Source of the DNA: Caldilineaceae bacterium
GTDB lineage: Bacteria > Chloroflexota > Anaerolineae > Caldilineales > Caldilineaceae
Length of the DNA: 39,735 nt
Direction: 5' to 3'
Assembly: GCA_020433455.1 (NCBI GenBank)
Contig: JAGRCP010000046.1
Coordinates: forward strand, 1-39,735
The notes beneath the pieces are model-generated. The model ran no database searches. It was not told where the DNA came from and saw nothing but the letters and a program-made list of their open reading frames with translations. The translations under genes were made by a program, and so were the position numbers. Shown here in pieces: positions 1 through 37,894 of this stretch. The number at the start of each line of letters is the position of its first letter. Positions within the stretch are counted from its first letter, which is position 1.

Positions 1-192
1 GTCGCCGATCGCGGCGTCGAAGGCCGCAATCTGACTGCCCCGTTGCCGTGGTTCCGGCTGATGGTCGACTGGCTCGCGCAGAATCCGGCGCACGGTATCC
101 CGGTGGCAGCCAACTGCCTTGGCGATCTGGCTGTTGTTCCAGCCCTTCTGTTTCAGATAGTAGATGGTAGATCGTTCCATGAATCCCAGCAT
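1..192 (-). mobile_element. IS21-family transposase IstA, N-terminal HTH fragment; the gene continues beyond the window start
   Basis: The reverse-strand translation reads MLGFMERSTIYYLKQKGWNNSQIAKAVGCHRDTVRRILREP.... Its layout matches the IS21 IstA N-terminal helix-turn-helix (compare MLSREDFYMIKQ...TVRRYL). The ORF runs off the 5' edge of the window. The start is at 192 (ML...), with an alternative in-frame ATG at 180. Confidence 0.6.
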
Positions 193-291
193 CCTTGTTG
201 GCGTCCCTTCGTGGCAGATGACCTGTCCCTGACTGGGAACAAGTGGCGGTAATCTGCCCGAAGTGTACCCGCCGTGGGTGCTGATTTTTAA

Positions 292-323
292 ACCGGAATT
301 GTGCCCTATTCTTCACCGGAATT
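292..323. repeat. 9-bp direct repeat accggaatt x2 (292-300 and 315-323), a possible IS-end transposase-binding repeat
   Basis: The exact direct repeat is visible in the sequence. It lies upstream of the transposase start, where IS21 ends carry multiple repeated binding sites. That link is inference. Confidence 0.25.
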
Positions 324-329
324 TACAAA

Positions 330-368
330 GGCGGCAGGCAGGCCCTTGCTGCAAGACTGCCTGCCGCC
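330..368. other. Perfect 12-bp stem hairpin (GGCGGCAGGCAG / CTGCCTGCCGCC, 15-nt loop)
   Basis: The arms are exact reverse complements. The hairpin sits between the IS fragment and the AT-rich HAD gene, so it may be an insulator or terminator at the IS/cargo boundary. Confidence 0.4.
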
Positions 369-453
369 CAACAAGCCGTTGCAGCCGACCGGCTTCGCCG
401 GTGGCTGAACGGCACGCCGTTATGCATTCATGAAATAGGACTACAGATACTCA

Positions 454-1154
454 ATGGAAATAGTTACAATAAGAAATGTAGTGTTTGATATTGGAAATGT
501 ACTCGTCAAATGGTCGCCAGAAGAGATCATCCGAAAAACATTCGGAGAAGAAGCAGATACGGAAAAATTGATTGAGAAGATCTTCCGAAATGAATGTTGG
601 ATTGCTCTAAATAAGGGTGAATTATCCGAGGAATCCGCAAAACAAAAGTATCAACGAATATTATACTCCGTTCAGAATGAAACCCGCAGTTTGCCACTCG
701 ACCCGTGCGGCAGAAAAACTGTTGGTCTCAAATTGCACGCAGTATAGATGTCAAATCAGAAATAATTGATGAATTATTCTATCAGATCAAAGACACCCAG
801 AAGCCTGTCGAAGGAACCGTGGATCTTCTGCATCGCCTATCCAGCTCAGGCTATATGCTTTATGCATTAACGGACAATGTGATAGAAATCGTCCAGTATT
901 TAAAGGAACGATATACATTTTGGGAATATTTTGTCGGAACAGTTGTCTCTGCCGAGGTAAATTGCATGAAGCCAAATCCTGAAATCTTTCTTCATTTATT
1001 AGATGAATATAACATCCTGCCAGATGAAACTGTATTCATTGATGATCACATGCCCAATGTTGAAAGCGCAAACAATCTTGGGATACATGTAGTGCATTTC
1101 AAAGACGCCAATGAATGTGAACAGGAGTTAAAGGAATTAGGATTAGTATTCTAA
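454..1154 (+). pseudogene. HAD-superfamily hydrolase (YihX / epoxide-hydrolase-N-terminal-like), split by a frameshift near 705-747
   Basis: Two overlapping ORFs (454..747 frame 1 and 705..1154 frame 0) together give a complete HAD domain. Motif I is VFDIGNVL, motif II is LYALTDN, motif III is the Lys in MKPNPEIF, and motif IV is FIDDHMPNV. The region is AT-rich and unlike the flanking DNA. Confidence 0.6.
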
Positions 1155-1187
1155 CATTGTGTACGAGGTTGAAATTGTAGACTACCA

Positions 1188-1487
1188 TTGAGGAATAGAA
1201 CGAGAGATTTACCGCCCATTCATCCAGGGGAGATATTGTTGGAAGAGTTTTTGGCGCCGATGGGAATTAGCCGGTATCGACTTGGCAAAGGACATCAGTA
1301 TGCCGGCGGGTCGCGGATGTCGCGCCGGCTCATATGGGTGGTCGTCGCTTTTGCCGCCGTGAGTCTGGCGCTCAATTTGATGACGCCCAGCAGGGGCGAG
1401 CGGGCGATCTGGGCGCCGGCGGCCTTGCTACTGCTGATAAGCAGCGCCATGGTCGCTATGGACAAGTCTTCTCAGCCCATCCCTTGA
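1188..1487 (+). pseudogene. Decayed HigA-like (XRE HTH) antitoxin remnant fused to unrelated reading frame
   Basis: The N-terminus IHPGEILLEEFLAPMGISRYRL is the canonical HigA start. The expected continuation AKDISMPAGR appears in the +1 frame and is then lost. There is a TTG start and no cognate higB nearby. Confidence 0.3.
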
Positions 1488-1675
1488 CAAGGCGCTGAAC
1501 CGCGCTCCTCCTGGTTTGGCAACTGACTTCACCGGAGTCCGGACTGCTAACGCAAGGCTGTTCCAGGGAATCAAATCCCTTTGTTGAAAGCTCATGGGGA
1601 ATGCTTTTTCTTGACGTTTGTGAGAAATCCATTGTTTTGACGCGATATCAATAGGAGCTTTACGAGGTTACAAAC

Positions 1676-2503
1676 ATGAGAGATCTATTCTCGCTGGAGG
1701 GAAAGACCGCGGTCGTGACCGGCGGCTCAACCGGGATCGGGGCGATGATTGCAGAAGGGTTTGTTAACTTTGGGGCGAAGGTGTACATCGTAGCGCGCAG
1801 GGAAGAACTCCTGCAACAGAAACAGGTGGAGTTAGGACGCATCGGTCTCTGCGAGTACCTTGTCGCCGATGTGGGGTCCGTCGCCGGGATCAAGGAACTG
1901 GCCAAGGCGTATGGTGAACGTGAGGACTCGCTCGACATCCTGGTTAATAATGCCGGTATCAGCGACGGCGGACAGGAGATCGAGGAGGTGACCGAAGAAA
2001 CGTGGGATGCCGTGATGGATCTCAACCTCAAAACCATCTTCTTTATGACTCAGTCCTTTCTGCCCTTCCTGCGGGTGGGGGCCTCTCCTGCAACCCCGCG
2101 CAATGTGATCAATATCGCATCGATCGACGGGTGCGGGAAGCTCAATGCCTTTTACAATTATGCGTATGGCGCCAGCAAAGCCGGCGTTATTCAGTTGGGC
2201 CGACATCTGGGCGACAGGCTCGCCTGGGAGGGGATTCAGGTCAATACCCTCTCGCCCGGTGACTTTCCCAGCGATTTGAACACGACGGCTCGGGACCATA
2301 CGGAGGAGATGAAACGCGTCATCCCTGCGAAGCGGATCGGCGAGAAGGAGAATATCGCCGGGGCGGCTATCTTTCTCGCCTCGCGTGCCGGGAACTTTAA
2401 TGTCGGCTCCAATCTCGTGGTTGACGGCGGTGAGAGCGTGCGGGGAATTCAGCGGGCATTTTATGCCACGATTTGGCCCGATCTGGTGAAGTTGGACAGG
2501 TAG
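1676..2503 (+). CDS. SDR-family NAD(P)-dependent oxidoreductase
   Basis: The Rossmann motif TGGSTGIG is at the N-terminus and the catalytic YAYGASK (YxxxK) is present. The length is about 275 aa, and NNAG is present. Confidence 0.9.
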   Translation: MRDLFSLEGKTAVVTGGSTGIGAMIAEGFVNFGAKVYIVARREELLQQKQVELGRIGLCEYLVADVGSVAGIKELAKAYGEREDSLDILVNNAGISDGGQEIEEVTEETWDAVMDLNLKTIFFMTQSFLPFLRVGASPATPRNVINIASIDGCGKLNAFYNYAYGASKAGVIQLGRHLGDRLAWEGIQVNTLSPGDFPSDLNTTARDHTEEMKRVIPAKRIGEKENIAGAAIFLASRAGNFNVGSNLVVDGGESVRGIQRAFYATIWPDLVKLDR

Positions 2504-2704
2504 TCGCCCATGCGATCATTCTTTAAAAAATGAGCCGATACGTTGTGCATTGCGCCAGGGGCAAAATCGGTAGCGGAATATAGCATGGCAAACGCCTTCC
2601 GGCGCAGCTGCTCGACACTCTACGATGGCACATAACAAGCCATAGTTAGGTGCTTCATGCGCGCCGGTGACATTGATCGTGATGCGGCTGAATGGGAAAG
2701 AATT

Positions 2705-3352
2705 ATGGCAGGCAAGAAGAAAAAATTCTATGTTGTCTGGAAGGGCCACAACCCAGGAATCTATACGAGTTGGGCAGAGTGTAACGCCCAGGTAAAAGGC
2801 GTCCCGCAGGCTGAATATAAATCATTCGAAACATTGGCAGAAGCGGAGCAGGCCTATCAAGGCAAGTATTCAGTGTATGCGGGAAAATCCGGCAAGACGC
2901 AGAAAGACAATATCTTACCGGAAGATGTTTTACGAAGGATCGGACAACCCAATCCGGATGCATATTGTGTCGATGCAGCCTGTAGCGGAAGCCCCGGAGA
3001 GCTTGAATATCGCTGTGTGCATGTTGGGACAAGAAAAGAGATATTTCGACAAGGTCCCTATGCAGACGGGACCAATAACATCGGCGAGTTTTTGGCACTC
3101 GTGCATGCGCTCGCTTTATTCAAGCGGGAGGGGCTTACCAAGCCCATCTACTCTGATTCAAAAATAGCCATCGGCTGGGTCGAGAAAAGGCATTGCAGGA
3201 CTAAACTTGAAAAAACCGAAAGAAACCAGAAGTTGTTTGATTTGATTGAGAGAGCGGAGAGATGGTTGATTGAGAATCATTTCGAAAATAGGCTCATAAA
3301 GTGGGAAACACGCGTTTGGGGCGAGATCCCGGCAGATTATGGCCGTAAGTAA
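2705..3352 (+). CDS. rnhA: Ribonuclease H1 with N-terminal hybrid-binding (dsRNA/RNA-DNA) domain
   Basis: The N-terminal KKFYVVWKGHNPGIYTSWAECNAQVKGVPQAEYKSFETLAEAEQAY is the RNase H1 HBD / caulimovirus-viroplasmin-like domain. The RNase H catalytic core is CVDAACSGSPGELEY...TNNIGEFLALVHAL...YSDSKIAIGWVEK. The gene is AT-rich. An upstream in-frame ATG at 2657 is an alternative start. Confidence 0.8.
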   Translation: MAGKKKKFYVVWKGHNPGIYTSWAECNAQVKGVPQAEYKSFETLAEAEQAYQGKYSVYAGKSGKTQKDNILPEDVLRRIGQPNPDAYCVDAACSGSPGELEYRCVHVGTRKEIFRQGPYADGTNNIGEFLALVHALALFKREGLTKPIYSDSKIAIGWVEKRHCRTKLEKTERNQKLFDLIERAERWLIENHFENRLIKWETRVWGEIPADYGRK

Positions 3353-3776
3353 ACGAGAGCCGCATTGAAGATTTCCCATGGGAAGAGCGCTACGTTTTTG
3401 GGTACGGCAGTAAAACAGAATATGAAAAACTGAAAAAGACCCAGCCTTCTTACACGGATACTTTTGAATTCCTCGGCTTTGATGATGAAGTTGACAGAGG
3501 CTATGGCATCCTGGTTAAGGTAAGGCGGGTAGCTGATAAAAGGAAGTTCACAGTATCTTTGGACGATTTGGAAGCTACAGATGAGCAATCAACGAATTGT
3601 CAACTGCTCGATGATTTTTCCGTATGGTTTGTTAACTATTAGGCGGTAACGCGCAACATCTTGCTTGCGCCTAATCACCGCTTCACCTCAGACTGTCGCA
3701 GCAGCGGCGCGCTTGCGGCAGCATATAATCCTCCCATGCAACCTGCTCCATTTGGCGCTTAAAAAGGTGGCAAAAA

Positions 3777-4355
3777 TTGGTTGACATAGACCTGTCCAGG
3801 GTAAGGGCGTTCAAGACCTCAGACGAGTTCTATGATTGGTTGGAACTCAATCATCAGGACTCTTCTGAATTATGGTTGCAGATCTACAAAAAAGGGTCTC
3901 AGCAGCCGTCGATAAGCTGGCAGGAAGCGGTTCGGGTTGCGCTCTGCTGGGGCTGGATTGACAGCGTAAAAATGTCTCGCGATGCCGATTCCTACCTGCA
4001 ACGATTCACGCCCCGACGCGCGGGCAGCAGTTGGTCAAGACGCAATACGGAACATGTGGAGGCGCTGCTTGAAGAAGGATTGATGAGAGAAGCGGGCATG
4101 CTGCATGTCCGGGCCGCACAAGCGGACGGACGCTGGGCGTCGGCTTACGCGCCATCCAGCGAAATGGCCTTGCCGCCTGATTTCCTGGCTGAATTGGAGG
4201 CCAACCCGGCAGCTAAGGAATTTTTCGAGACGCTGAGCAAATCTTCCCGCTATGTGATCTATCATCGACTCCAAACGGCAAAGCAAGCGGATACCAGGCA
4301 GAGGCGGCTGGAAAAATTTGTCGCGCTTCTCACCAACCGGGAGAAGCCGACGTAA
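3777..4355 (+). CDS. YdeI/OmpD-associated family protein (DUF1801-like)
   Basis: The sequence DEFYDWLELNH...ELWLQIYKKG...WQEAVRVALCWGWIDS matches the family signature. There is a TTG start with an aaaaaggtgg RBS. Confidence 0.7.
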   Translation: MVDIDLSRVRAFKTSDEFYDWLELNHQDSSELWLQIYKKGSQQPSISWQEAVRVALCWGWIDSVKMSRDADSYLQRFTPRRAGSSWSRRNTEHVEALLEEGLMREAGMLHVRAAQADGRWASAYAPSSEMALPPDFLAELEANPAAKEFFETLSKSSRYVIYHRLQTAKQADTRQRRLEKFVALLTNREKPT

Positions 4356-27806: not shown

Positions 27807-28568
27807 ATGCTGCGCATGACCCGCACCCGCATCACCTTCTTCAGCGTCGTCGGTCTGATGGTGATTATCCTTATGATCTCCCTGGCGACCCAATCCATTG
27901 CCGTACAGGCGTTGAGCCAGCTCTTCATTGCTGCAACCATTTTCAGCGTTGCGGTGGTGACCATCGACATGCTGGGCCTGCTGGGCGGCGAGAGCGGCGA
28001 CGGCGCGCACGGCGGCGACAGCGGTGATTTTGATGCAGGCGATGTTGACGCGGGCGATTTTGACGCAGGGGATGCGGCGATCGACCACGCGGGTGACGGC
28101 GAGATTGCGGTAACGGGCGGCGAGGATATCGGTCCGGGCGACACCCATACCGGATATCTGGGCGATCAGGGCAATCCGGTGCTCTCGGCCCTGACCTACC
28201 TGCGCATGTTCGTCTATTTCTGCCTCGGCTTTGGGCCCGTGGGTTGGTTTGCGCTGAACGGCGGTTGGAATCCGGCCATGGCCCTGCTGTTGGCCGCGGG
28301 CGTGGGCGTGATTGCGGTCTTTATCGCCCAGGCGTTTTTCCGCTTCCAGCGCAGCGATACCGACTCCAGCATCCGCAACAGCGAACTGCTGCAGCGTCCT
28401 GCCACCGTCCTCATCGGCCTAAGCGACACGAGTTTGGGGCGGGTGCGGGTTCAGATCGGCATGAGCGTGCTGGAGCCCCACGCGCTGGCTGCTCGTCCCG
28501 GACGTTTTGTCAAAGGCGACGCCGTGCGCATCGTCCGCGTCGAGGATGATTGCGTTTATGTGGAATAG
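27807..28568 (+). CDS. NfeD-like membrane protein (OB-fold C-terminus) with Asp/Gly-rich acidic insert
   Basis: It has TM helices and the C-terminal NfeD beta-barrel (ATVLIGLSDTSLGRVRVQIGMSVLEP...GDAVRIVRVEDDCVYVE). It lies immediately upstream of the flotillin gene. Confidence 0.7.
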   Translation: MLRMTRTRITFFSVVGLMVIILMISLATQSIAVQALSQLFIAATIFSVAVVTIDMLGLLGGESGDGAHGGDSGDFDAGDVDAGDFDAGDAAIDHAGDGEIAVTGGEDIGPGDTHTGYLGDQGNPVLSALTYLRMFVYFCLGFGPVGWFALNGGWNPAMALLLAAGVGVIAVFIAQAFFRFQRSDTDSSIRNSELLQRPATVLIGLSDTSLGRVRVQIGMSVLEPHALAARPGRFVKGDAVRIVRVEDDCVYVE

Positions 28569-28625
28569 CAGGCGTAACGCGCCTGCATTACTTCTGACAT
28601 CTGACTGTTGAAAGGAGCGTTATCC

Positions 28626-30011
28626 ATGGGAATTATCGGTGGCGTTGTAGCGGTTGTTCTTTTCTTTCTGGTAATCGGCCTGCTGCGGTCCATTATTCAC
28701 GTCTGTCCGTCGAACCAAATTCTGGTGATTACCGGCGGCACGGAGACCGAAGTGGACGGACGCAAATATGGCTTCCGCCTGCAGAAGGGCGGCTGGACGG
28801 CCATCGTGCCTTTCCTGCAGAACGCACGCTCCATTGACCTGACGATTACGCCCATCAACGTGCGCATTGACGGCGTCAACTCGGCCAACGGCATCAACGT
28901 GGGCGCGGATGCCACGGCCTGCGTCTGTATCGATGATGAGAATGAGACGCTGCTCTACAGCGCGGTCCAGCAGCTCCTGGGCAAATCGCGGGATCAGATT
29001 CAGGATCAGATTCAGCAGACCATGATTGGTAACTTCCGGGCCGCGCTCAACAAGACGACGCCCCTTCAGGCCATCGGTATGGTGGAGAGTGCAGAGGATG
29101 TGGATGATGTGGAATTGGCCGCCCTGGCGGGCAAAACCATCGGCACGACGCCCATGGATGCCTCCAACAGCAGCGCAGAACTGGTCGAGAAGATTAATGA
29201 TGCCGAAGGCGAGCGCGCAATCTTCCGCAGCGTACTGCTGGAAGATTGCCAGGAAGATTTGAGCAGCTTCGGCATTGACGTTGTTTCGGTCTCCCTCCAA
29301 CGGATTTGGGATACGTCCAACTATATCGCCAACCTGGCCAATAAGACCCTTTCACGCAAGCGCCAGGATGTGGAAGTCGAGGAGGCCCGCCTCCACGCCC
29401 GGGCCGACCGGGCCGAATCCGATGCCCAGCGCCGGATGCAGGTGGCCGAGAGTCAGGCCAACGAACGCATTGTGGCCGCACGTCAGGATGTGGAACTCTT
29501 CCGACGCCAGGCTGAGGCTGACATCAACCGGGCACGGCTGGAGGCGGACAGCGCCATTGCCGAGGCGGAAAGCCAGGGCCAGCGCAAGGTGGAGGAGTTG
29601 AAGGTGGAGTTGCAGCGGCTGCGCAACCAGTCGGAAGTGACGCTGGATGCCTCGGCCCGGCGCCGGGCCGCGGAAACCACGGCCGAGGGCGAAGGCGACG
29701 CCGTGGAGATCGTCCAGGCTGCCCACAACGATTTGCTCCAGCGCAGGGCCGAGCTGCTGCGGGAGAACGGCGATTTGGCGCGGCTGGTGCTCATCTACAA
29801 CAAGCTGCCCGAACTGTTTGCTGCCTATCAGCAGCACGCCCAATCCCAAAAGGTGGGGCAGCTGCTGGTGCTCAACGAAGAAGACGGTTTCAATCAGGCC
29901 GTCAACCGGGGCCCGGCCGCCATGGTCAGCTTCCTGCAGCAACTGGATGCGGGTTTCGGCGTCAACCTGCGCGATCTCCTGCGCAGCGATCAGCCGGCCC
30001 AGCAAGCGTAG
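28626..30011 (+). CDS. SPFH/Band-7 flotillin-like protein (FloT/YuaG-like)
   Basis: There is an N-terminal TM segment, an SPFH domain, and a C-terminal Ala/Glu/Arg/Gln-rich coiled coil. An AAAGGAG RBS precedes the ATG at 28626, and the TTG at 28608 is an alternative start. Confidence 0.8.
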   Translation: MGIIGGVVAVVLFFLVIGLLRSIIHVCPSNQILVITGGTETEVDGRKYGFRLQKGGWTAIVPFLQNARSIDLTITPINVRIDGVNSANGINVGADATACVCIDDENETLLYSAVQQLLGKSRDQIQDQIQQTMIGNFRAALNKTTPLQAIGMVESAEDVDDVELAALAGKTIGTTPMDASNSSAELVEKINDAEGERAIFRSVLLEDCQEDLSSFGIDVVSVSLQRIWDTSNYIANLANKTLSRKRQDVEVEEARLHARADRAESDAQRRMQVAESQANERIVAARQDVELFRRQAEADINRARLEADSAIAEAESQGQRKVEELKVELQRLRNQSEVTLDASARRRAAETTAEGEGDAVEIVQAAHNDLLQRRAELLRENGDLARLVLIYNKLPELFAAYQQHAQSQKVGQLLVLNEEDGFNQAVNRGPAAMVSFLQQLDAGFGVNLRDLLRSDQPAQQA

Positions 30012-30134: not shown

Positions 30135-30434
30135 CTACTGACCTGAAGCGCTGCGTGCATCATCAACCAGATTCTCGATCAGCCCTGTAAGGGTGTCTTC
30201 AGCGACATCCAACTGCGCCAGAGGAGAGGTCGCTGACTGCGCGTAGATCTGCCCGAGAACGGCCGTGCGCTGTTCTCGTTGCTGTTCCAGTTCTTCAAGT
30301 CGTTCAATCGGAATCAGGGCGATTGCCGGTTTTCCGGAACGTGAGACAATGTAGGTATCCTTGCCGTACATCACTTCGTTCATCACCTGTGCGAAGTTAA
30401 TGCGCACGTCTGTGGCGGAAATAGTTTTGTTCAT
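30135..30434 (-). CDS. Phd/YefM-family type II antitoxin (no adjacent toxin)
   Basis: The sequence MNKTISATDVRINFAQVMNEVMYGKDTYIVSRSGKPAIALIPIERLEELE is the Phd/YefM fold. The protein is 99 aa. Confidence 0.75.
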   Translation of the reverse strand: MNKTISATDVRINFAQVMNEVMYGKDTYIVSRSGKPAIALIPIERLEELEQQREQRTAVLGQIYAQSATSPLAQLDVAEDTLTGLIENLVDDARSASGQ

Positions 30435-30560
30435 AAATGGCGCCTTTTTGTAAATCAGGATACGCTGTCTACCAGTACATAAAATGTACATTTTGTATAA
30501 GTGTCCTACGTTAAAATTGTTGCGTAGTCAAGGGCGCGTCTGCCGCGGATCTAATTCAAT

Positions 30561-30776
30561 TTTGGGGCAGGATTCAGAATCGGTGGGTAGATTCTTCGCT
30601 GGAGGTTAGGGACGCCTGAACATTTTGGGTTAACCCGCTCAGAATGACAGCGCGTCTTGTTTTGTCATTCTGAGCGGATCGCCACAGCCGCGTCATGACA
30701 GCAGAAGGTCAGCGAAGAATCTTGCCTGGGATAGTCAGGGGGGTATTTCACGCTGGGGGCAGGATCCAGAATTCGA
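30561..30776. repeat. Nested inverted-repeat element flanked by about 20-bp direct repeats (MITE-like / structured ncRNA candidate)
   Basis: The inner 15-bp perfect stem pairs 30636-30650 with 30665-30678 (CCGCTCAGAATGACA / TGTCATTCTGAGCGG). The outer 13-bp perfect stem pairs 30590-30602 with 30711-30723 (AGATTCTTCGCTG / CAGCGAAGAATCT). The element is flanked by direct repeats GGGGCAGGAT(T/C)CAGAAT(C/T)(G/C)G at 30566-30585 and 30757-30776, the first copy preceded by TTTT. Confidence 0.5.
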
Positions 30777-30945
30777 GCCGCAAAGGGTTAATATCAGCCG
30801 AAATACCGTCCAATCCGGCCCAAATTTTGCCTGAATTACGATCGCTCCCCCAAATTGAAATGCACTTGTCTGCCGGACGACCGCAAGGGTCGCACTCTAC
30901 CCCAGCATTATTTTCTGTAGTGGCGTAGGCGCGTATGGGCATATA

Positions 30946-30989
30946 AAAAGCGGCCGTCATCTTGCTGATGAGACGACGGCCGCTTTTTG
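30946..30989. terminator. Bidirectional rho-independent terminator (AAAAAGCGGCCGTC...GACGGCCGCTTTTT)
   Basis: A GC-rich 9-12 bp stem is flanked by an A5 run on one side and a T5 run on the other. It lies immediately 3' of bcp on the minus strand. Confidence 0.8.
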
Positions 30990-31025
30990 AGTAGGGTTTT
31001 CGATGAGCGTTCTTGCTATGGGCGC

Positions 31026-31487
31026 TTATCCCAGCGCTTTGAGCGCGGCGGGCGCACTCTTTTTGGGACTGATCTTGTACTGTACATCGACCAGCTTCCC
31101 GGCTTCATCAATGACAAACTGGCTGCGGATAATGCCCATATATTTGCGGCCATACATGGATTTCTCGCCCCACACGCCATAGGCATCGGCGATGCTGTGA
31201 TCCTCATCCACCAGGAGGGTGAAGGGCAGATCGTACTTGCTGCGAAACTTTTCGTGGGAGGCCACGCCGTCGGGGCTGACGCCCAACACCACGGCGTTCT
31301 TCTCTTCAATTTCAGGATAGACATCGCGCAGGCCGCACGCCTGGGTGGTGCAACCGCTGGTATCATCTTTGGGATAGAAGTAAAGCACCACGCGTTTCCC
31401 CGCATAGTCGCTCAGGCGGACGGTATCGCCGCTGTCGGTGAGTGCGCTAAAGACCGGGGCCGATTGGCCGACTTCCAGGTTGGTCAT
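31026..31487 (-). CDS. bcp: Thiol peroxidase Bcp / peroxiredoxin Q
   Basis: The motif FYPKDDTSGCTTQAC carries the peroxidatic and resolving Cys, and the fold is thioredoxin-like. The protein is 153 aa from MTNLEVGQSAP. Confidence 0.85.
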   Translation of the reverse strand: MTNLEVGQSAPVFSALTDSGDTVRLSDYAGKRVVLYFYPKDDTSGCTTQACGLRDVYPEIEEKNAVVLGVSPDGVASHEKFRSKYDLPFTLLVDEDHSIADAYGVWGEKSMYGRKYMGIIRSQFVIDEAGKLVDVQYKISPKKSAPAALKALG

Positions 31488-31563: not shown

Positions 31564-32370
31564 TTATGTAGGGCGGGAGACGGAACCGGCGGCCGCGCGC
31601 GGGGCGGTGCGCGCCTTGCTCCCTTTCGGCTTGGCTGAAAAAATGCGGTAATAGGTAGCAAAGAGTACGCTGGCGCCCGTGAACAAATATACGGCGTGCA
31701 TGGCAAAATGCCCGCTATCGCTGCCCTCCATGAGACCGTGGATCAGGGCCAGCACAAAGGCGACATAGGCCAGATAGTGAAAGGCGCGCCACGCCCGCCG
31801 TCCGATCCGCTTGCGCACGTAAAAGCTTGCAATCAGGGCCGTCGAGAGATAGAAGGAAACCGTCCCCAATCCAGTCCACACCGGCTTGTAGGATGCCGTA
31901 AACGGCAACAACAAATCGCGTAGCTGGAAGTGAATGTACTGGTCGCCCAGCAGGACCAGCGCATGCACCGCAGCGAAAATGACGGCCAGAAAGGGAAAGA
32001 ATTCATGCAGACCGAAGAGCAGCGCAGGCTTGAGGGCCCCTTTGGTCAGCTTGCCGCTCATGGCCACGCCCCAGAAGGTTGCAAACCAGAGCAGGAGATA
32101 AGCGACGATGCCGCCGGCACGGGCCATATACCAATAGGCGGGCGTGTCTTCCGTCAGGGGCAAAGCCATGATCGTTGCCTCTTGGCGCAACGTGTCTGTG
32201 ACCGCGGAACCGGCCGCAGTAAGAGCCGCGGGTTCGCGGAGCGCCATGGTCGGGAGCAGTGTTGCTGCGGTCAGTACGGCAATCGCGCCGATAAGACTGC
32301 CGACCAGCATAATCAGGATGTCGGGGCTGCGTGTGGAATGGGTTTGGGTAGTCATGAGCTGTTTCCTCAA
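31564..32370 (-). CDS. Ferric-reductase-like / MsrQ-like di-haem transmembrane protein
   Basis: It has six predicted TM helices. There are two His pairs at H-x13-H spacing (LHEFFPFLAVIFAAVHAL and FHYLAYVAFVLALIHGL), which is typical of bis-haem b ferric-reductase domains. Confidence 0.6.
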   Translation of the reverse strand: MRKQLMTTQTHSTRSPDILIMLVGSLIGAIAVLTAATLLPTMALREPAALTAAGSAVTDTLRQEATIMALPLTEDTPAYWYMARAGGIVAYLLLWFATFWGVAMSGKLTKGALKPALLFGLHEFFPFLAVIFAAVHALVLLGDQYIHFQLRDLLLPFTASYKPVWTGLGTVSFYLSTALIASFYVRKRIGRRAWRAFHYLAYVAFVLALIHGLMEGSDSGHFAMHAVYLFTGASVLFATYYRIFSAKPKGSKARTAPRAAAGSVSRPT

Positions 32371-32417
32371 TTGAATGTTATTCGATAAGCGTCGGGTTAA
32401 ATGTGCAGCCGTCGCCC

Positions 32418-32888
32418 TTATGAGCTGCCGCTCTTGGACGAGCCGCCGCTACTATTGCTGCCGCCGTTGTTATTGTTGCTGCTGCGGCTGGGCGGTGGCG
32501 GGACCGGCTTCTGGGGCAGAGCAGGAAGGGGCTCCAGCGTAGGCAGCGGCGCCAGGGCGGACATGCCGGGTAAGGCAAGGTCTACAGGAGCGGCCGCCTC
32601 CGCCTCGTCGAGTTGGTGCGTGATAAAGTCGGCCGTGTTTACGCGCAGGGTGGGGATGGACGCCGGCGTGGGCAGGGCGGCAATGTCCGGCAGCCCAGGC
32701 GTGACGGTCACTGCCTGCACCGGCTGCTCCGGGAGCGCCTCGGACTGGGCTCTGGCCGCCTCCAGGTGGCCGATCGCGCCCCAAACCCCGATCATCGACG
32801 TAATCGCCAGGGCGGTGGCCGTGGTTTTGGCCGGCAGAGAAAATTTACTGGGTCCTACAGGTTGTGGTTTCATATCAATCATCCTCAT
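32418..32888 (-). CDS. Membrane-anchored Pro/Ala-rich hypothetical protein with Asn/Gly/Ser-rich C-terminal tail
   Basis: It has a single N-terminal TM segment (ALAITSMIGVWGAIG), then a Pro-rich extracytoplasmic region and an NNNNGGSNSSGGSSKSGSS tail. It lies between the ApbE and MsrQ-like genes. Confidence 0.4.
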   Translation of the reverse strand: MRMIDMKPQPVGPSKFSLPAKTTATALAITSMIGVWGAIGHLEAARAQSEALPEQPVQAVTVTPGLPDIAALPTPASIPTLRVNTADFITHQLDEAEAAAPVDLALPGMSALAPLPTLEPLPALPQKPVPPPPSRSSNNNNGGSNSSGGSSKSGSS

Positions 32889-32960
32889 AATTTTCGGGCA
32901 AATTTTTGTGCAGCAGAATTAACCGTACGACGGAAACATGGCTTTCGTCGGGTTTCCGGT

Positions 32961-33903
32961 TTAGCACGACTGTACTGGGTGTAAATGACGTTCAGGCGGA
33001 GAGACGGTGAGCCGGGAAGCCAGCCCATCAGTAGCATAGAGCCTTCCGTCCTGAGCCTGAAGTAGAGCATCCACGCCCCGTTGCGTCAGGAAAGTCAGTC
33101 CGGCGCGGCTGCCCAGAATCAGTGCGCTCTTGGCATAGATCTCAGCGATGGTCGCCCGGGGCGCCAGAACAGTAACGGCGAGCAAGTCGGTATCCGCGGG
33201 TTGACCCGTGCGCGGGTCGATAATATGGTGGCGCATCCGCCCATCCCGCTGCCAGCGACGCTTGATCACCGTTGACGTGGCGACCGCACTGTGGCTGACC
33301 GTCACTGTGGCCACGCCGGCATCCGGATTCAATGCGTCTTCTATCTCGATCCGCCAGCCGTCCGTTGTCCCCGGCGTACCATAGGCATAGATATCCCCGC
33401 CGGCATTGAGCAGAAACGGCCCTTCCTTGTAGAGCAAATCGGCGCAGCGATCCACCGTCCACCCTTTCCCGATTCCGCCCAGATCCAGGCGGAGCTCGCA
33501 GGGGCGGCGCACCCGACAACCGTTGCGATCAAGCACCACATCCTTCATGGTAAAGTGACTGTGCGATGAGCCGTCCGCGCGCCAGCCTGCTACGGTTGGC
33601 GTCGTCTGGTCGGCGGCTATCTCTTCAAAGCTACGGTCGTAGCCCGCCCTTTCCAGACTCGGCAGGATGGTCGGATCAAAGAGACCTTGCGTACTGGAAG
33701 CCGCCCACTGCGCGGCTTCCAGTACGGCGAACAACTCGTGGCTCACGTGTTGTTCAGGCCGTTCGCTGCGGTTGAGCAGACTTAACTCGCTGTCCGCACG
33801 GAACCGGGAAAGGCGTTGCTCGCTGCGGGCGAAGGTCGTCTCCACATACCGGGCCAGGCTGGGGCGGGTTGAATACAGCAGGACGGAGACGTTGGTGTTC
33901 ATG
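32961..33903 (-). CDS. apbE: FAD:protein FMN transferase ApbE
   Basis: The motifs RFRADSELSLLN, LGGIGKGWTVD, NAGGDIYAYG and HHIIDPRTGQP are ApbE signatures. The likely start is MNTNVSV at 33903. The Met/Thr-rich N-terminal extension of the listed ORF is an out-of-frame read of the upstream gene's repeat. Confidence 0.85.
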
Positions 33904-33987
33904 GCTCGAAATTGGCGTTCCGTCCAGGCTGCTCCGCCGGCGGGGCTTACAGCCGCAAATCCCGCAGCGGTTGGTGCGCCCGGCATG

Positions 33988-34674
33988 TTAGTCGTCATCG
34001 TGGTCGCCGCCGTGGTCGTCATCATGATCGCCGCCGTGATCATCTCCATGATCATCTCCATGATCATCACCGTGTTCGTCATCGTGTTCGCCTGACTCAT
34101 GCTCTTCATGGTCGTCATCATCGTCTTGGTGGGCGCTGTTGTTATTATTGTCGCTGCCGCCCCCGTTGCCGCCGGGACGAGCTGCTTGGGCAGCCTGTTG
34201 TGCCGCCAGATCGTTGTAGGCCGTCTGAAGTGAAGCCAGGGTCGTTTCCAACTGCCGGCGCAGTTGCGTTTCGTTGCCTTGAAGCGCCGTTACTTGCTGG
34301 GTGTAGGCCTGGGCGTCCTGCTCCAACGCAGCCTGGGCGGTTTGGAGTTGGGCCTGCAGATTGGCGACGGCGCTCTCCCGGGCGGTGATTGCCGCCTGAT
34401 CGGCCTCTACGGCAGACTGGGCCGCTTCTATCTTTGCGCTATACTCAGCGTCCATATTCGCCAGTACTTGCTGCAACTCTGCAACGTTGGCCTGGAGCGC
34501 CTTTTCCTGCGCAAGCTGGGGCGCTTCAGCCTCGGTAGACGTGACAACCGCAACATCTGTTGTCTCCGGCTGGGCCGCGCTGCGGGCACGGGCCTGACCG
34601 GTCAGCACAACAAGCGGGCCGGCGATTAAAATAGTCAGTAAAGCGGATAGTAAAAAGGCGTGTGAGCGCTGCAT
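33988..34674 (-). CDS. Signal-anchored coiled-coil protein with Gly/Asn linker and His/Asp-rich C-terminal tail (putative periplasmic metal-binding, Spy/CpxP/ZraP-like)
   Basis: An N-terminal TM/signal segment is followed by about 150 aa of Gln/Ala/Leu-rich heptad helix carrying a VTALQ LTxxQ-like motif. The C-terminus is HQDDDDDHEEHESGEHDDEHGDDHGDDHGDDHGGDHDDDHGGDHDDD. An AAAGGAGA RBS precedes the ATG. Confidence 0.55.
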   Translation of the reverse strand: MQRSHAFLLSALLTILIAGPLVVLTGQARARSAAQPETTDVAVVTSTEAEAPQLAQEKALQANVAELQQVLANMDAEYSAKIEAAQSAVEADQAAITARESAVANLQAQLQTAQAALEQDAQAYTQQVTALQGNETQLRRQLETTLASLQTAYNDLAAQQAAQAARPGGNGGGSDNNNNSAHQDDDDDHEEHESGEHDDEHGDDHGDDHGDDHGGDHDDDHGGDHDDD

Positions 34675-34764
34675 GTCATTCTCCTTTATCTCTCGCCCGT
34701 CACGGGCGTTATGTTGGCGATGTCTCATCTCTTGCGGATTGATTTCCGGCCTGCGCCGAGTTTC

Positions 34765-35271
34765 TTACCGTCCCAGCACCTGGTTGACTTCATCCAGCCG
34801 GGCCTGCGCTTCATTGATCTGGGCTGTAATCATCTGGGCGCGGGCCGCGTACTCGGATTGGGCGCCTTGCAGCTGCTGTGCGTATTGGGCGCTGCGCCCG
34901 GCGCGTGCAGCCGTGAATTTTTCCAGCTGTGCGCTCAGCGCTTCCTCCTGCTGAATCAGGGCCGTCAGCTTTTCATCTGCTGCGTTCTGGGCATTGGTCA
35001 AGGCGGTCAATTGGTCGGCAAAGATTGCCTGACGTTCGTCAATGGTGCGCTGAAGTTCACCCGCCTGCTTTTGCAGAGTGAGCGCACGATCTACGTAAAA
35101 TGCCGTATCCGCTTCAGTGCTTGCTTCTGTATTCATTTCTGTACTTGCGTCCGTTGATGCTGATGCCGCTTCGGCCGTCAGGCCCATTGCGGGCGCGAAG
35201 CTAAAGAAAAGCACGGTTGCGGCCAGTGCGACCGTCATGGTGACAACGAAAATGACAACTGTACTCCGCAT
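34765..35271 (-). CDS. Signal-anchored coiled-coil protein, paralog of the downstream gene (Spy/CpxP-like size, 168 aa)
   Basis: An N-terminal hydrophobic segment and an acidic ASTDASTEMNTEASTEAD stretch are followed by a Gln/Ala/Leu-rich helix that contains LTNAQ (LTxxQ). Confidence 0.5.
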   Translation of the reverse strand: MRSTVVIFVVTMTVALAATVLFFSFAPAMGLTAEAASASTDASTEMNTEASTEADTAFYVDRALTLQKQAGELQRTIDERQAIFADQLTALTNAQNAADEKLTALIQQEEALSAQLEKFTAARAGRSAQYAQQLQGAQSEYAARAQMITAQINEAQARLDEVNQVLGR

Positions 35272-35536: not shown

Positions 35537-37135
35537 TTACCGGCTGGGGATAGGGAACGCTATGGTAAAGGCTGTGCCCTGCTTTTCGGTGCTGGAGACG
35601 CTGATACGGCCGCCGTTTTGCTCTACCAATGTTTTGACAATGGCGAGTCCGAGACCGGCCCCCGTACCCTCGCCCCTCTGCAGGCGGCTACGCGCCGGGT
35701 CAACGCGGTAGAAGTATTCGAAGATATGCGCCAAATCCTCGGGCGGAATTCCCGGGCCCGAGTCGCTGACGACAATTTTCGCAACGCCGGTCCGGCCCGC
35801 CGTCTGTTCGGTCTCGACGCGCAGGGTGACGCTCCCCCCGGGCGGGGTGTACTTGACCGCGTTATCCAGCAAATTGAGCACGACGGTTTCGACTTCATTG
35901 GCGCGTACGCTGAGCGGGGGCAGCAGTTCTTCAACGCTCACGGCAAAGGTGAGGCCGGCGTCCTTCATGCGCATGCGCATGGCGCGCGCCACGTCGAGAA
36001 GCATGGGGCGTATATCTGTCGGCGCTTCCGGCGGCGGCGGTTCGCGATTCTCGATCTTGCTCAGATCCAATAGGGTAGCAGCCAGCCGGCCCAGGCGATC
36101 CGCTTCGCTGTCAATCTCATGCAGATAGCGCTTGCTTAGCGCCGGGTCCTCGCCGTCCAGCGTCAGGAGGGCTTCACTGCGCAGCTTGATATTGGTCAGC
36201 GGCGTGCGCAGCTCATGGCTGGCATTGGCGATGAAGAGTCGTTGGCGGCGGATCATCTCCTGCAGCTCGCTCACCATGTAGTCGAAGGTCCGCGCCAGCG
36301 AGCCAATCTCATCGATTGAGTCAATATCTGCGCTCTGGGACAGATCGCCGGAAGCCACAGCCAATGCGGTTTCCTGCAGGCGTTGGATGGGGCGCACCAA
36401 ACGGCGCGCCAGGAAGATGCCCAGCACCGTGGCCAGGGCCAGCGCCGCCGCGCCGGCCAGTAAGAGGGTCAGCGCGAGCCCCCGAATGGGGGCAAGTACG
36501 TCGGACATGGGTTGAGCCATGCGCACAACGCCGAGCAGATTGTCGCCGATTTGCACCGGTGCAGCAGCAAACATATAGCGCACATCGCCCGCGGGATCGG
36601 TTCGAATATCGTGCTGTTCGACAAGCTGGGTTGCGGCCTGAAATTCGGGCGTGAGCAGTTGGTTGCCGATGGCCGCGGCCGAACCGCGGCTGTCTACGAT
36701 TGCATCGCCGCGCACGTCGAGGATTGTGACCCAGAGGCCGTCCTGTTGAGCGTAGCGGTTGGCCAAATGTTGCAGGCCATTTGTGCCCGGCGCGTTCGCC
36801 GTAAGGCCCTGGTCGCCCGCGTCGTCTTCTTCTCCGGCCGAATCTTCCCCGTCGTCGCTCTCTTTTCCGTCATGACTTTCTCGCCGCTCGTATTCTTCCA
36901 GCTCGCTGGAATATCCGCTGAGCGGATCTTCCAGGGCGTTCGCGGCCAACAAGGCTTTTACCTCCAGATCGTGTTCGGCCTGGTCGATCTGGACGCTGTA
37001 GACAGCGTTAATCACCAGCGCCATGAGCAGGCTCAGCACAATTAGAACGAGCAGGCCATAGCTGGCGATCAACCGAAACTGGAGACGCTGACGCCAGGGG
37101 ATGCGGGATGGGACGGGCAGAGCCTGTTTATTCAT
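35537..37135 (-). CDS. Sensor histidine kinase (two TM, acidic periplasmic sensor, HAMP, HisKA, HATPase_c)
   Basis: The H-box is HELRTPLTNI, the N-box is LLDNAVKYT, and the G-box is GTGAGLGLAIVKTLVEQNGG. The periplasmic loop contains ESHDGKESDDGEDSAGEEDDAGD. Confidence 0.88.
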   Translation of the reverse strand: MNKQALPVPSRIPWRQRLQFRLIASYGLLVLIVLSLLMALVINAVYSVQIDQAEHDLEVKALLAANALEDPLSGYSSELEEYERRESHDGKESDDGEDSAGEEDDAGDQGLTANAPGTNGLQHLANRYAQQDGLWVTILDVRGDAIVDSRGSAAAIGNQLLTPEFQAATQLVEQHDIRTDPAGDVRYMFAAAPVQIGDNLLGVVRMAQPMSDVLAPIRGLALTLLLAGAAALALATVLGIFLARRLVRPIQRLQETALAVASGDLSQSADIDSIDEIGSLARTFDYMVSELQEMIRRQRLFIANASHELRTPLTNIKLRSEALLTLDGEDPALSKRYLHEIDSEADRLGRLAATLLDLSKIENREPPPPEAPTDIRPMLLDVARAMRMRMKDAGLTFAVSVEELLPPLSVRANEVETVVLNLLDNAVKYTPPGGSVTLRVETEQTAGRTGVAKIVVSDSGPGIPPEDLAHIFEYFYRVDPARSRLQRGEGTGAGLGLAIVKTLVEQNGGRISVSSTEKQGTAFTIAFPIPSR

Positions 37136-37150
37136 GATGTCGTCTATTTG

Positions 37151-37894
37151 TTATTTGTGATCGGCGATCTCATCCGGGGCGACGAGACGATATCCCACGC
37201 CCCGGATCGTGAGCAGCAATTCCGGCTTGCTCGGATCCCGCTCCAGCTTTGCGCGCAGCCAGCGCATGTGTACATCCAGCGTACGCGGATCGCCGATCCA
37301 CTCCGCGCCCCACACCTGATCCACCAAATCGCCCCGCTTCACCGCGGCGCCCTGCGCATCGAGCAGCGCTATCAACAAGCTGTATTCCCGCTGCGAAAGA
37401 TGCACCGGTTCATCATCCACCGCCACCTGGTAGCGCGCCCGATTGACGCTTACGTGGCTCAACTGCACGACGGCGGATTCCTCCGGGGGGGCAGTCTCGG
37501 CCGGGGGCGTTTGCTGCGCGCTGTCCATGGCCACCCGCCGCAATACGGCGCGAATGCGGGCGATGAGTTCCCGTGCGCTGAAGGGCTTGGTGAGATAATC
37601 ATCCGCACCCAACTCCAGGCCCAGAATGCGGTCCATTTCTTCTCCCCGGGCAGTCAGCATGATGATGGGAACGCCACTCTCGGCGCGCAACTCGCGGCAG
37701 ACTTCCCAGCCCTGCTTTTTGGGCATCATGATATCCAGCAGGACAACGTCCGGGTCTATCGCCCGCGCCTGGGCCAGCGCATCTTCGCCGTCGACTGCGA
37801 CGTGTACGACAAAGCCTTCGCGGCGCAGTTGCAATGCCAGGGGATCGATGATCATCGGATCGTCATCCGCCAGCAAGATAGTCTCATCGGCCAT
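37151..37894 (-). CDS. OmpR/PhoB-family response regulator
   Basis: The receiver domain has ILLADDDP and the phospho-accepting Asp in VVLLDIMMPK. The C-terminal winged helix ends in GVGYRL. Confidence 0.9.
   Translation of the reverse strand: MADETILLADDDPMIIDPLALQLRREGFVVHVAVDGEDALAQARAIDPDVVLLDIMMPKKQGWEVCRELRAESGVPIIMLTARGEEMDRILGLELGADDYLTKPFSARELIARIRAVLRRVAMDSAQQTPPAETAPPEESAVVQLSHVSVNRARYQVAVDDEPVHLSQREYSLLIALLDAQGAAVKRGDLVDQVWGAEWIGDPRTLDVHMRWLRAKLERDPSKPELLLTIRGVGYRLVAPDEIADHK

Follow-up and report, generated by a model that had tools for sequence, protein, structure and literature searches.

ApbE-family enzymes are FAD:protein FMN transferases (FAD, flavin adenine dinucleotide; FMN, flavin mononucleotide) that recognise the motif D-x-x-[ST]-G-A-[ST], the last residue of which is the flavin acceptor (PMC12052999). 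Replacing the Asp of this motif has a minor effect, G-to-A and A-to-V substitutions halve the yield, a Ser acceptor is accepted less well than Thr, and seven-residue flavin tags work best at protein termini (PMC12052999). Here, we have analysed an apbE locus in a metagenome-assembled genome of the Caldilineaceae (Chloroflexota). The analysed stretch, hereafter the window, is a complete contig of 39,735 bp. Its minus strand carries, from 37894 to 31564, genes for a response regulator and a histidine kinase, two coiled-coil proteins (CC1 and CC2), an ApbE protein, a 156-amino-acid (aa) protein that we call SP, and a ferric-reductase-like cytochrome, in this order. Judged from sequence, the best candidate for the acceptor of this ApbE is a short serine-ending tail that is found at the C-terminus of SP and of a lipoprotein family encoded in related loci, because the tail resembles the ApbE motif, is syntenic with apbE, is portable between proteins and has no competing candidate.

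Among the closest described relatives are the MsrQ-like systems of Meheust et al. (2021, eLife), mostly from Actinobacteria, which consist of ApbE and a PF01794 protein encoded within five genes of apbE, typically together with an FMN_bind gene (PMC8238504). As in those clusters, apbE of the window is clustered with a di-haem protein of six transmembrane (TM) helices, here one that resembles PF01794 proteins, and in both cases an extracytosolic flavin is presumed to receive electrons from the cell, possibly so that iron can be reduced. However, a protein with an FMN-binding domain is typical of the MsrQ-like clusters and an NAD-binding domain is frequent in them, neither of which is found in the window, where ApbE has no signal peptide, the candidate substrate is a domain-less tail and the taxon is Chloroflexota. 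For a cluster to enter that survey, its ApbE, FMN_bind, DUF2271 or DUF3570 protein had to carry a signal peptide or a lipobox (PMC8238504). The window cassette fails this filter and therefore would not have been seen there. In the main survey, no recognised substrate was present in about 17% of the genomes that encode ApbE (PMC8238504).

Other flavinylation systems share single features with the locus. In the Listeria FmnB/PplA and the NqrC/RnfG systems, as in the arrangement proposed here, an ApbE-family enzyme produces an extracytosolic flavin carrier that stays tethered to the membrane of a monoderm envelope. In Listeria, however, FmnB is an exported lipoprotein, FAD is exported via an energy-coupling factor transporter and PplA has folded FMN_bind domains (PMC9973259), none of which has a counterpart here. 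The fumarate reductase system of Klebsiella pneumoniae also has a signal-less cytoplasmic ApbE, but its substrate is a soluble cytoplasmic enzyme with a canonical FMN_bind domain, whereas the candidates here are exported and domain-less. In the engineered Flavin-tag of Tong et al., as outlined in PMC12052999, a short terminal peptide ending in the acceptor Ser/Thr suffices and a cytoplasmic ApbE functions in vivo. The tag outlined there is canonical, whereas the natural tail lacks the Asp, has Gly or Ser at position -1 and Gly, Arg or Lys at position -2, and ends in a putative acceptor. Flavinylation motifs have also been proposed on unstructured C-terminal extensions of Firmicutes FMN_red proteins (Huang et al. 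2024, PMC11334425); these tails fold back on a pre-existing flavodoxin-like flavin pocket, whereas SP is without a folded domain. Our full-text literature searches found no description of the cassette or of a serine-tail substrate.

The same serine tail on two unrelated exported families

The first-pass annotation of this DNA had described an ApbE beside a di-haem membrane protein with no recognisable FMN-binding substrate, and this holds for the contig, which is what our substrate searches covered. Pfam scans of the larger open reading frames (ORFs) of the window gave no FMN_bind, NQR or RNF protein and no NqrB/RnfD, DUF2271 or DUF3570 substrate domain, and D-x-x-[ST]-G-A-[ST] had zero matches in the six frames of the 39.7-kb window. 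Across 84 loci the canonical motif matched three times, always in ORFs outside the cassette, and no recognised substrate domain was found in the scanned cassette proteins of related loci. The same annotation had stated that the 156-aa protein carries no flavinylation motif. The canonical motif is indeed absent, but a conserved C-terminal tail of the form [ST]-x-[GSA]-S had been overlooked.

A look-up of three homologues returned the same five genes in the same order (the cassette is kept in L001-L004), beside either a response regulator and kinase or an extracytoplasmic function (ECF) sigma/anti-sigma pair. Scanning 185,579 species genomes gave 80 related loci, all of them from Chloroflexota except one from Paenibacillus sinensis. 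Two gene orders dominate, namely CC1-CC2-ApbE-SP-cytochrome (type A, in which CC1 is the first cassette gene) and CC-SP-ApbE-cytochrome (type B). We found SP in 74 of the 80 loci; the remaining six are cut by a contig end, masked or fragmented. ApbE is adjacent to SP and the cytochrome in about 68. The tightest linkage is that of SP with the cytochrome, as the two also occur without ApbE within 5-6 kb (L031, L033, L039, L045, L046, L078/L081 and L082); ApbE can thus be unlinked or absent.

SP (32418..32888, minus strand; 151 aa if translation starts at ATG 32873) is annotated as a 'hypothetical protein' and matches no Pfam or NCBIfam family. Its N-terminus is basic and is followed by a single hydrophobic helix and then by disordered, Pro-rich sequence. 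Structure prediction had been suggested for this protein; the AlphaFold2 (AF2) model contains only the helix at residues 21-46 (32751..32828), with the rest disordered, no fold and a predicted local distance difference test score (pLDDT) of 54, so that it allowed no useful fold search. The mean net charge is +4.2 over the 15 residues preceding the helix and -1.3 after it (67/70 SPs), and these flanking charges indicate that SP either is inserted N-in/C-out or has a cleavable signal, the helix being a signal anchor or a signal peptide. The proline-rich stretch after the helix varies from 30 to 219 residues, with a median of about 110, and the alignment of SPs has 22% mean identity with no invariant column in the body. 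As there is no invariant Ser/Thr in the cytoplasmic N-terminus, we rejected a flavinylation site there.

The conserved part of SP is its end. The window SP ends in K-S-G-S-S-COOH (32421..32435), a putative flavinylation tag, and its relatives end in KSGGS, KTGSS, SKGS, RSGGS, RTRSSR, RSRSSK, TTGSSK, MTRGS or RTRAS, giving the consensus [RK]-[ST]-[G/R/K]-[G/S/A]-S-(x)-COOH. An end of the form [ST]-x-[GSA]-S-(x)-COOH is found in 67 of 70 SPs, whereas among the 2186 other ORFs (>= 100 aa) of these loci the proportion is 1.4%, and about half of these background matches are themselves further SP or lipoprotein copies. The Ser that we number as position 0 is the last or second-last residue in all 70 SPs. 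Position -1 is Gly in 45, Ser in 21 and Ala in 3 (69/70), position -2 is Gly in 32, Arg in 22 and Lys in 8 of the 70, position -3 is Ser in 50 and Thr in 14 (64/70), and position -4 is Arg or Lys in 45. Where the tail reads S-G-[G/S]-S-COOH, it agrees with the ApbE core [ST]-G-A-[ST] at three positions out of four. SP is the sole real gene of the window with such a C-terminal end.

The tail recurs in a larger sample. Owing to the low complexity of SP, a word-indexed profile search returned only 10 proteins, and a full scan with a hidden Markov model (HMM) was needed; run against 1.84 billion proteins, as representatives of 50%-identity clusters, it gave 85 matches at E <= 0.001. The tail also ends 73 of the 81 new SP representatives from this search. 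The eight exceptions are three spurious long proteins, four that are apparently truncated at the C-terminus and one that ends in RGRSSR.

In seven of the genome loci, a lipoprotein gene lies upstream of ApbE, either directly or with one gene between. The protein combines a lipobox (L-x-G-C) and a Pro/Thr linker with a conserved domain, about 110 aa long, and a poly-Gly linker, and all intact copies in the genome loci end in ...S-G-G-S-COOH (lipoprotein copies at L018:3437-4165, L030:3131-3907, L034:3226-3957, L035:3643-4494, L036:1259-2092 and L043:3106-3894, and in L085-L102). A metagenome scan added 18 close homologues, of which all 15 with an intact C-terminus end in ...SGGS or ...SGSS; where the flank suffices, the gene order around them is CC1-CC2-lipoprotein-(Haem_bd)-ApbE-SP-cytochrome. 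Over the genome and metagenome loci together, most copies directly precede the ApbE gene. Nine distant homologues of the lipoprotein domain (32-36% identity) are found in other contexts with no ApbE nearby, and they are without the tail. The domain has no Pfam, NCBIfam or PDB relative, and its PDB matches, which we discarded, were to artificial Gly-Ser linkers. The family is absent from the window. Thus, the same tail is carried by two unrelated, clearly exported scaffolds, which otherwise share little beyond Pro-rich or Gly-rich linkers and nearness to the same ApbE.

The ApbE protein and the cytochrome

The ApbE-family protein (341 aa; 32961..33986, minus strand) matches Pfam PF02424 with E=1e-57 and 196.2 bits (cut-off 25.6), and PDB chains of Ftp/ApbE proteins match it at E=6e-27. 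The motifs FRAMNT, LSRFRADSEL, DLGGIGKG, AGGD and HHIIDPRTG could all be mapped in the sequence, the last aligning residue for residue with HHIIDPVTG of Treponema Ftp, the best solved relative. An aromatic residue or Tyr at the position of Tyr60 in Ftp_Ec marks the FAD-binding transferase type, and a polar residue marks the pyrophosphatase type (PMC4767422). The Phe of LSRFRADSEL aligns with Tyr in 4xdt (LSAYRDDSAL), while 7mgt, another Ftp, has Asn there. This Phe at the Tyr60 position is kept as S-R-F among the ApbE relatives. The enzyme therefore looks catalytically intact and of the transferase type. There are four cysteines in the window ApbE and more in that of L002.

We place the start of ApbE at ATG 33986, one base after the TAA stop of CC2, which leaves 25 residues before the F-R-A-M-N-T core motif at 33894-33911. 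The first-pass annotation was correct in that ApbE has no signal peptide, a feature of the whole clade, but the start from which it had read the protein, MNTNVSV, lies within this conserved core. It had also raised the question of alternative starts. An ORF of 386 aa does reach 34121; we rejected the long N-terminal extension or signal peptide that it would imply, as this ORF merely reads through the His/Asp codon repeat of CC2 (33988-34121) in the +1 frame. In this GAT/GAC/CAT repeat the +1 frame is stop-free, has many ATGs and reads Met/Thr/Ile-rich. The same artefact is seen in most type A loci, and the pseudo-extension is gone in loci without CC2 upstream. From ATG 33986 there is neither a signal peptide nor a lipobox, although characterised bacterial ApbEs typically have a secretion or lipoprotein signal, and many relatives allow only 3-24 residues before the F-R-A-M-x-T core (e.g. 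MRH-FKAMNT, MIQQIQ-FRAMGC and MEYDE-FSAMNT), with no hydrophobic stretch. As there is no room for a signal peptide across the clade and the enzymes contain several cysteines, these ApbE proteins are predicted to be cytoplasmic.

The ApbE core and the type of tail vary together. An AMN core is paired with an SP tail ending in Ser-COOH in 36 loci, and an AMG core (A-M-G-[STC]) with a tail ending in Ser-Ser-x-COOH in 21, so that core and tail match in 57 of 60 loci with three exceptions. The AMN and Ser-COOH pairing is also found in three loci of type B gene order. This correlation would fit co-evolution of enzyme and substrate. No 'Rosetta stone' fusion of ApbE with SP occurred among the 120 top-ranking ApbE homologues (lengths 259-384 aa).

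The cytochrome (268 aa from TTG 32370; gene at 31564..32355, minus strand, two positions from apbE) scores 23.6 bits against PF01794 Ferric_reduct, below the gathering score of 28, and many of its homologues have a precomputed PF01794 match. Its start is most likely ATG 32355, which lies behind a GAGGA ribosome-binding site. Four histidines are invariant over 22 homologues. The haem ligands had been given as H-x13-H twice; the spacings are in fact H122-x13-H136 (32005-32007 and 31963-31965) and H198-x12-H211 (31777-31779 and 31738-31740), numbered from TTG 32370. The AF2 model has six TM helices (pLDDT 80), and its best PDB matches in Foldseek are SpNOX (8qta/8qq7) and STEAP2 (7tai), with probability 1.0 and a weak E of about 0.03. 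By the positive-inside rule, both ends of the protein are cytoplasmic, and the His pairs therefore fall in TM3 and TM5, as in NOX.

Six TM helices and two haems, with His pairs in TM3 (H-x13-H) and TM5 (H-x12-H), are likewise the features of E. coli MsrQ (YedZ) and of the NOX and STEAP proteins. Unlike these, the cytochrome has neither an MsrP partner nor a dehydrogenase domain: there is no MsrP-type gene in the cassette, and neither Pfam nor the AF2 model gives a dehydrogenase or NAD(P)H domain on the protein. It belongs to the ferric-reductase superfamily and is not an MsrQ orthologue, since it scores 20.3 bits against the NCBIfam MsrQ equivalog NF003831, where the cut-off is 130. A flavinylation site within the cytochrome was considered and rejected; S105, T166, S182 and T231 are conserved but do not stand in a [ST]GA[ST]-like context, and the C-terminal tail is variable.

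Regulators, coiled-coil proteins and neighbouring genes

The operon is larger than it had been drawn, reaching 35271 with the coiled-coil genes and 37894 with the two regulators. Its first gene encodes an OmpR-type response regulator (37151..37894; Pfam Response_reg and Trans_reg_C), followed by a sensor histidine kinase of HAMP-HisKA-HATPase architecture in Pfam with an acidic extracytoplasmic loop (35537..37135). The NCBIfam matches of the kinase, to WalK, PhoR, heavy-metal and MtrB kinases, are all sub-threshold. A response regulator and histidine kinase pair flanks the cassette in most related loci.

CC1 (168 aa; 34765..35271) has an N-terminal hydrophobic anchor followed by a coiled coil. 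CC2 (246 aa; 33988..34728, with an alternative start at 34674) has an N-terminal anchor, a coiled coil, a Gly/Asn linker and a His/Asp-rich tail ending in ...HDDD; both genes are on the minus strand. A coiled-coil ORF with an acidic or His-containing tail is found on the cassette strand in 54 of the 80 loci, mostly ending in DDD or HDD. The His/Asp/Glu-rich composition of the CC2 tail (33988-34100) suggests a role in metal binding or docking.

Some of the related loci encode further redox proteins. A small membrane-anchored CxxCH protein of the Haem_bd family (PF14376) is found on the cassette strand in 20 of the 80 loci (e.g. L053:3448-4023, L057:5285-5791 and L025:1075-1590), and none in the window. 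In L033 (1078-2514), a 478-aa multi-CxxCH protein upstream of SP ends in ...REHDD like CC2. In the divergent cassette of L064 (3653-4414), a protein upstream of SP has a PepSY domain and ends in a poly-Asp/His tail; PepSY is a further family with ties to flavinylation and iron reduction, and the protein connects the cassette with it. The locus from Paenibacillus sinensis HN-1 (L080, NZ_JAHCMB010000049.1) is a type B cassette beside a divergent response regulator and kinase pair, in the order SP ending in ...RMRTRAS, signal-less ApbE and cytochrome. P. sinensis is a cultured Firmicute outside the Chloroflexota and a tractable organism, and its cassette hints at horizontal transfer.

The cytochrome gene is followed by one for a Bcp peroxiredoxin (31026-31487), which is not kept in related loci. 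Promoter and terminator scans of the region did no better than on shuffled sequence, and scans for Rfam families and tRNAs found none. Further along the contig are about 500 bp of lower-GC sequence without a convincing ORF and without an Rfam or tRNA match (30492-31025), a gene for a Phd/YefM-type antitoxin with no recognisable toxin partner adjoining (30135-30491, minus strand) and, at 27807-30011, genes for an unannotated 253-aa membrane protein with an acidic Gly/Asp repeat and for a 467-aa SPFH/Band 7 protein with a long coiled coil. The latter two, immediately upstream of the region, look like an NfeD-like/flotillin-like pair. Positions 1-4000 of the contig have a GC content of about 0.50, compared with about 0.60 elsewhere, and encode a short-chain dehydrogenase and a Cauli_VI (RNase H1 N-terminal) protein with a weak RNase H match. 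This segment may be horizontally acquired.

A proposed electron-transfer role and its alternatives

On our preferred reading, to which we give an even chance, the region forms the centre of a conserved operon for electron transfer in the envelope, under two-component regulation, which is found in filamentous Chloroflexota (Caldilineae/Anaerolineae) and once in a Paenibacillus. In this module a cytoplasmic ApbE would flavinylate a C-terminal tag before export, and the tethered FMN would then take electrons from the b-type cytochrome. The di-haem cytochrome would move electrons across the membrane and, as it is without an NAD(P)H domain, the donor would probably be the quinol pool. On the outer face, the acceptor would be FMN held covalently on the last or second-last Ser of SP, transferred there from FAD by ApbE. 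Since the ApbE clade has no signal peptide and the tail-bearing proteins are exported, the transfer would most likely take place in the cytoplasm, on the still-unfolded C-terminus, before export by Sec. That an unfolded substrate can be modified in the cytoplasm would explain both the signal-less ApbE and the lack of an FAD exporter in the cassette.

What happens beyond the tail is more speculative. The tethered flavin could act as a swinging arm or tethered shuttle on the long Pro-rich arm of SP, and in some relatives electrons might pass on to the tail-tagged lipoprotein and to the small c-type Haem_bd cytochrome. A metal ion held by the His/Asp tail of the CC2 stalk protein could conceivably be the final acceptor. 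The CC2 tail, the Haem_bd cytochrome of the relatives and the very name of the 'ferric reductase' family point towards a role in metal reduction; there is no metal transporter in the cassette. It is a tentative proposal, which we hold with somewhat less than even confidence, that nature uses the serine tail [RK]-[ST]-x-[GSA]-S-COOH as a portable tag for flavin, loaded by ApbE on unfolded Sec substrates before export to make swinging-arm carriers between the membrane cytochrome and acceptors of the envelope. That a cytoplasmic ApbE tags the tail before export is a novel claim, and we regard it as moderately likely.

The starting points of this proposal are the gene content and synteny of the loci, the conservation and portability of the tail, the absence of a canonical motif or domain, and a signal-less ApbE with an intact active site. 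Several points weigh against it. The tail has no Asp at position -6, it has Gly or Ser rather than Ala at -1, the type B tails have Arg or Lys rather than Gly at -2, and the acceptor would be Ser, a poorer substrate than Thr for the ApbEs characterised so far (PMC12052999). The FMN would sit on a disordered tail without an obvious binding pocket. In at least seven loci, SP and the cytochrome are encoded without an ApbE gene in the surrounding 5-6 kb, and shared phylogeny may explain the correlation of ApbE core and tail type equally well. Moreover, a predicted cytoplasmic ApbE conflicts with tails that are carried on N-in/C-out or lipoprotein precursors, unless modification precedes export. 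Sec export of a pre-flavinylated protein is undocumented in the literature that we found, and we know of no precedent for it. Sec can translocate chains with small side-chain adducts, and export of biotinylated domains has been reported; by analogy, export of a flavinylated tail would be plausible.

As the substrate search was made in the contig, a canonical substrate could be encoded elsewhere in the genome. ApbE would then act in trans, as a housekeeping or otherwise dedicated flavin transferase, on an FMN_bind protein, an Nqr/Rnf-like subunit or a cytoplasmic reductase, while SP would be a structural or assembly subunit whose tail serves another purpose. The departure of the tail from the canonical motif, the pairs of SP and cytochrome without a nearby ApbE and the lack of a signal peptide on the window ApbE all agree with this, cytoplasmic ApbEs with cytoplasmic substrates are known from the Klebsiella fumarate reductase, and the genome extends beyond the 39.7 kb that were searched. 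Nevertheless, we consider it unlikely, though far from negligible. About 68 of the 80 loci keep ApbE by SP and the cytochrome although types A and B have reordered the genes, the cassettes conserve neither a cytoplasmic reductase gene nor an FMN_bind gene, and a second, unrelated protein with the same tail adjoins ApbE. A trans-acting ApbE would also give no reason why two exported families should have conserved nothing but a serine-ending tail. The first-pass annotation had likewise offered a substrate elsewhere as one option and a non-canonical substrate, either the 156-aa protein or the coiled-coil proteins, as the other. Of these, synteny and the tail favour the 156-aa protein. The coiled-coil proteins were dropped as candidates, since they have no Ser/Thr motif and their conserved end is acidic and rich in His/Asp (...DDD/...HDD).

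Even if SP is the partner of ApbE, its tail could be a signal of another kind, such as a tag for processing or degradation, a docking site for the cell wall or a partner, or the site of some other Ser modification, with the likeness to the ApbE motif being a coincidence. The Asp and Ala of the canonical motif are missing, and the basic type B tails, R-[ST]-R-S-S-[RK], could pair electrostatically with the ...EHDDD end of a coiled-coil protein. However, the S-G-G-S tails of type A have a single basic residue, at position -4, yet the same strict placement at the C-terminus. Moreover, the cassette conserves no modifying enzyme other than ApbE and no protease or sortase-like gene, and the tail accompanies ApbE on two unrelated scaffolds but is missing from the distant homologues of the lipoprotein domain outside ApbE cassettes. 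A signal unrelated to flavin therefore seems rather improbable to us. We find it very doubtful that the ApbE protein works instead in the cytoplasm as an FAD pyrophosphatase, or in flavin trafficking, so as to supply or load non-covalent flavin on the inner side of the cytochrome. Such a role would suit its predicted location, its best solved relative (Treponema Ftp is a FAD pyrophosphatase) and a cytochrome without a dehydrogenase domain, as NOX and STEAP proteins use FAD at the cytoplasmic face. However, the discriminating residue is the aromatic Phe, conserved as S-R-F in the relatives, and a pyrophosphatase explains neither SP nor the tails.

If tail tagging before export is correct, it would define a new class of ApbE substrate and a new order of events, in which modification comes before export. 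ApbE substrates would not need to be folded domains, and those who mine genomes for them would need to search for terminal tags as well. Installing a covalent flavin in the cytoplasm and exporting it on an unfolded chain would solve the problem of FAD export, and the tail with its cognate enzyme would be a natural flavin tag of minimal size with which to label proteins. Tail tagging would also give a function, probably in metal or redox chemistry of the envelope, to a widespread and so far unannotated operon of filamentous Chloroflexota from soils, sludge and sediments.

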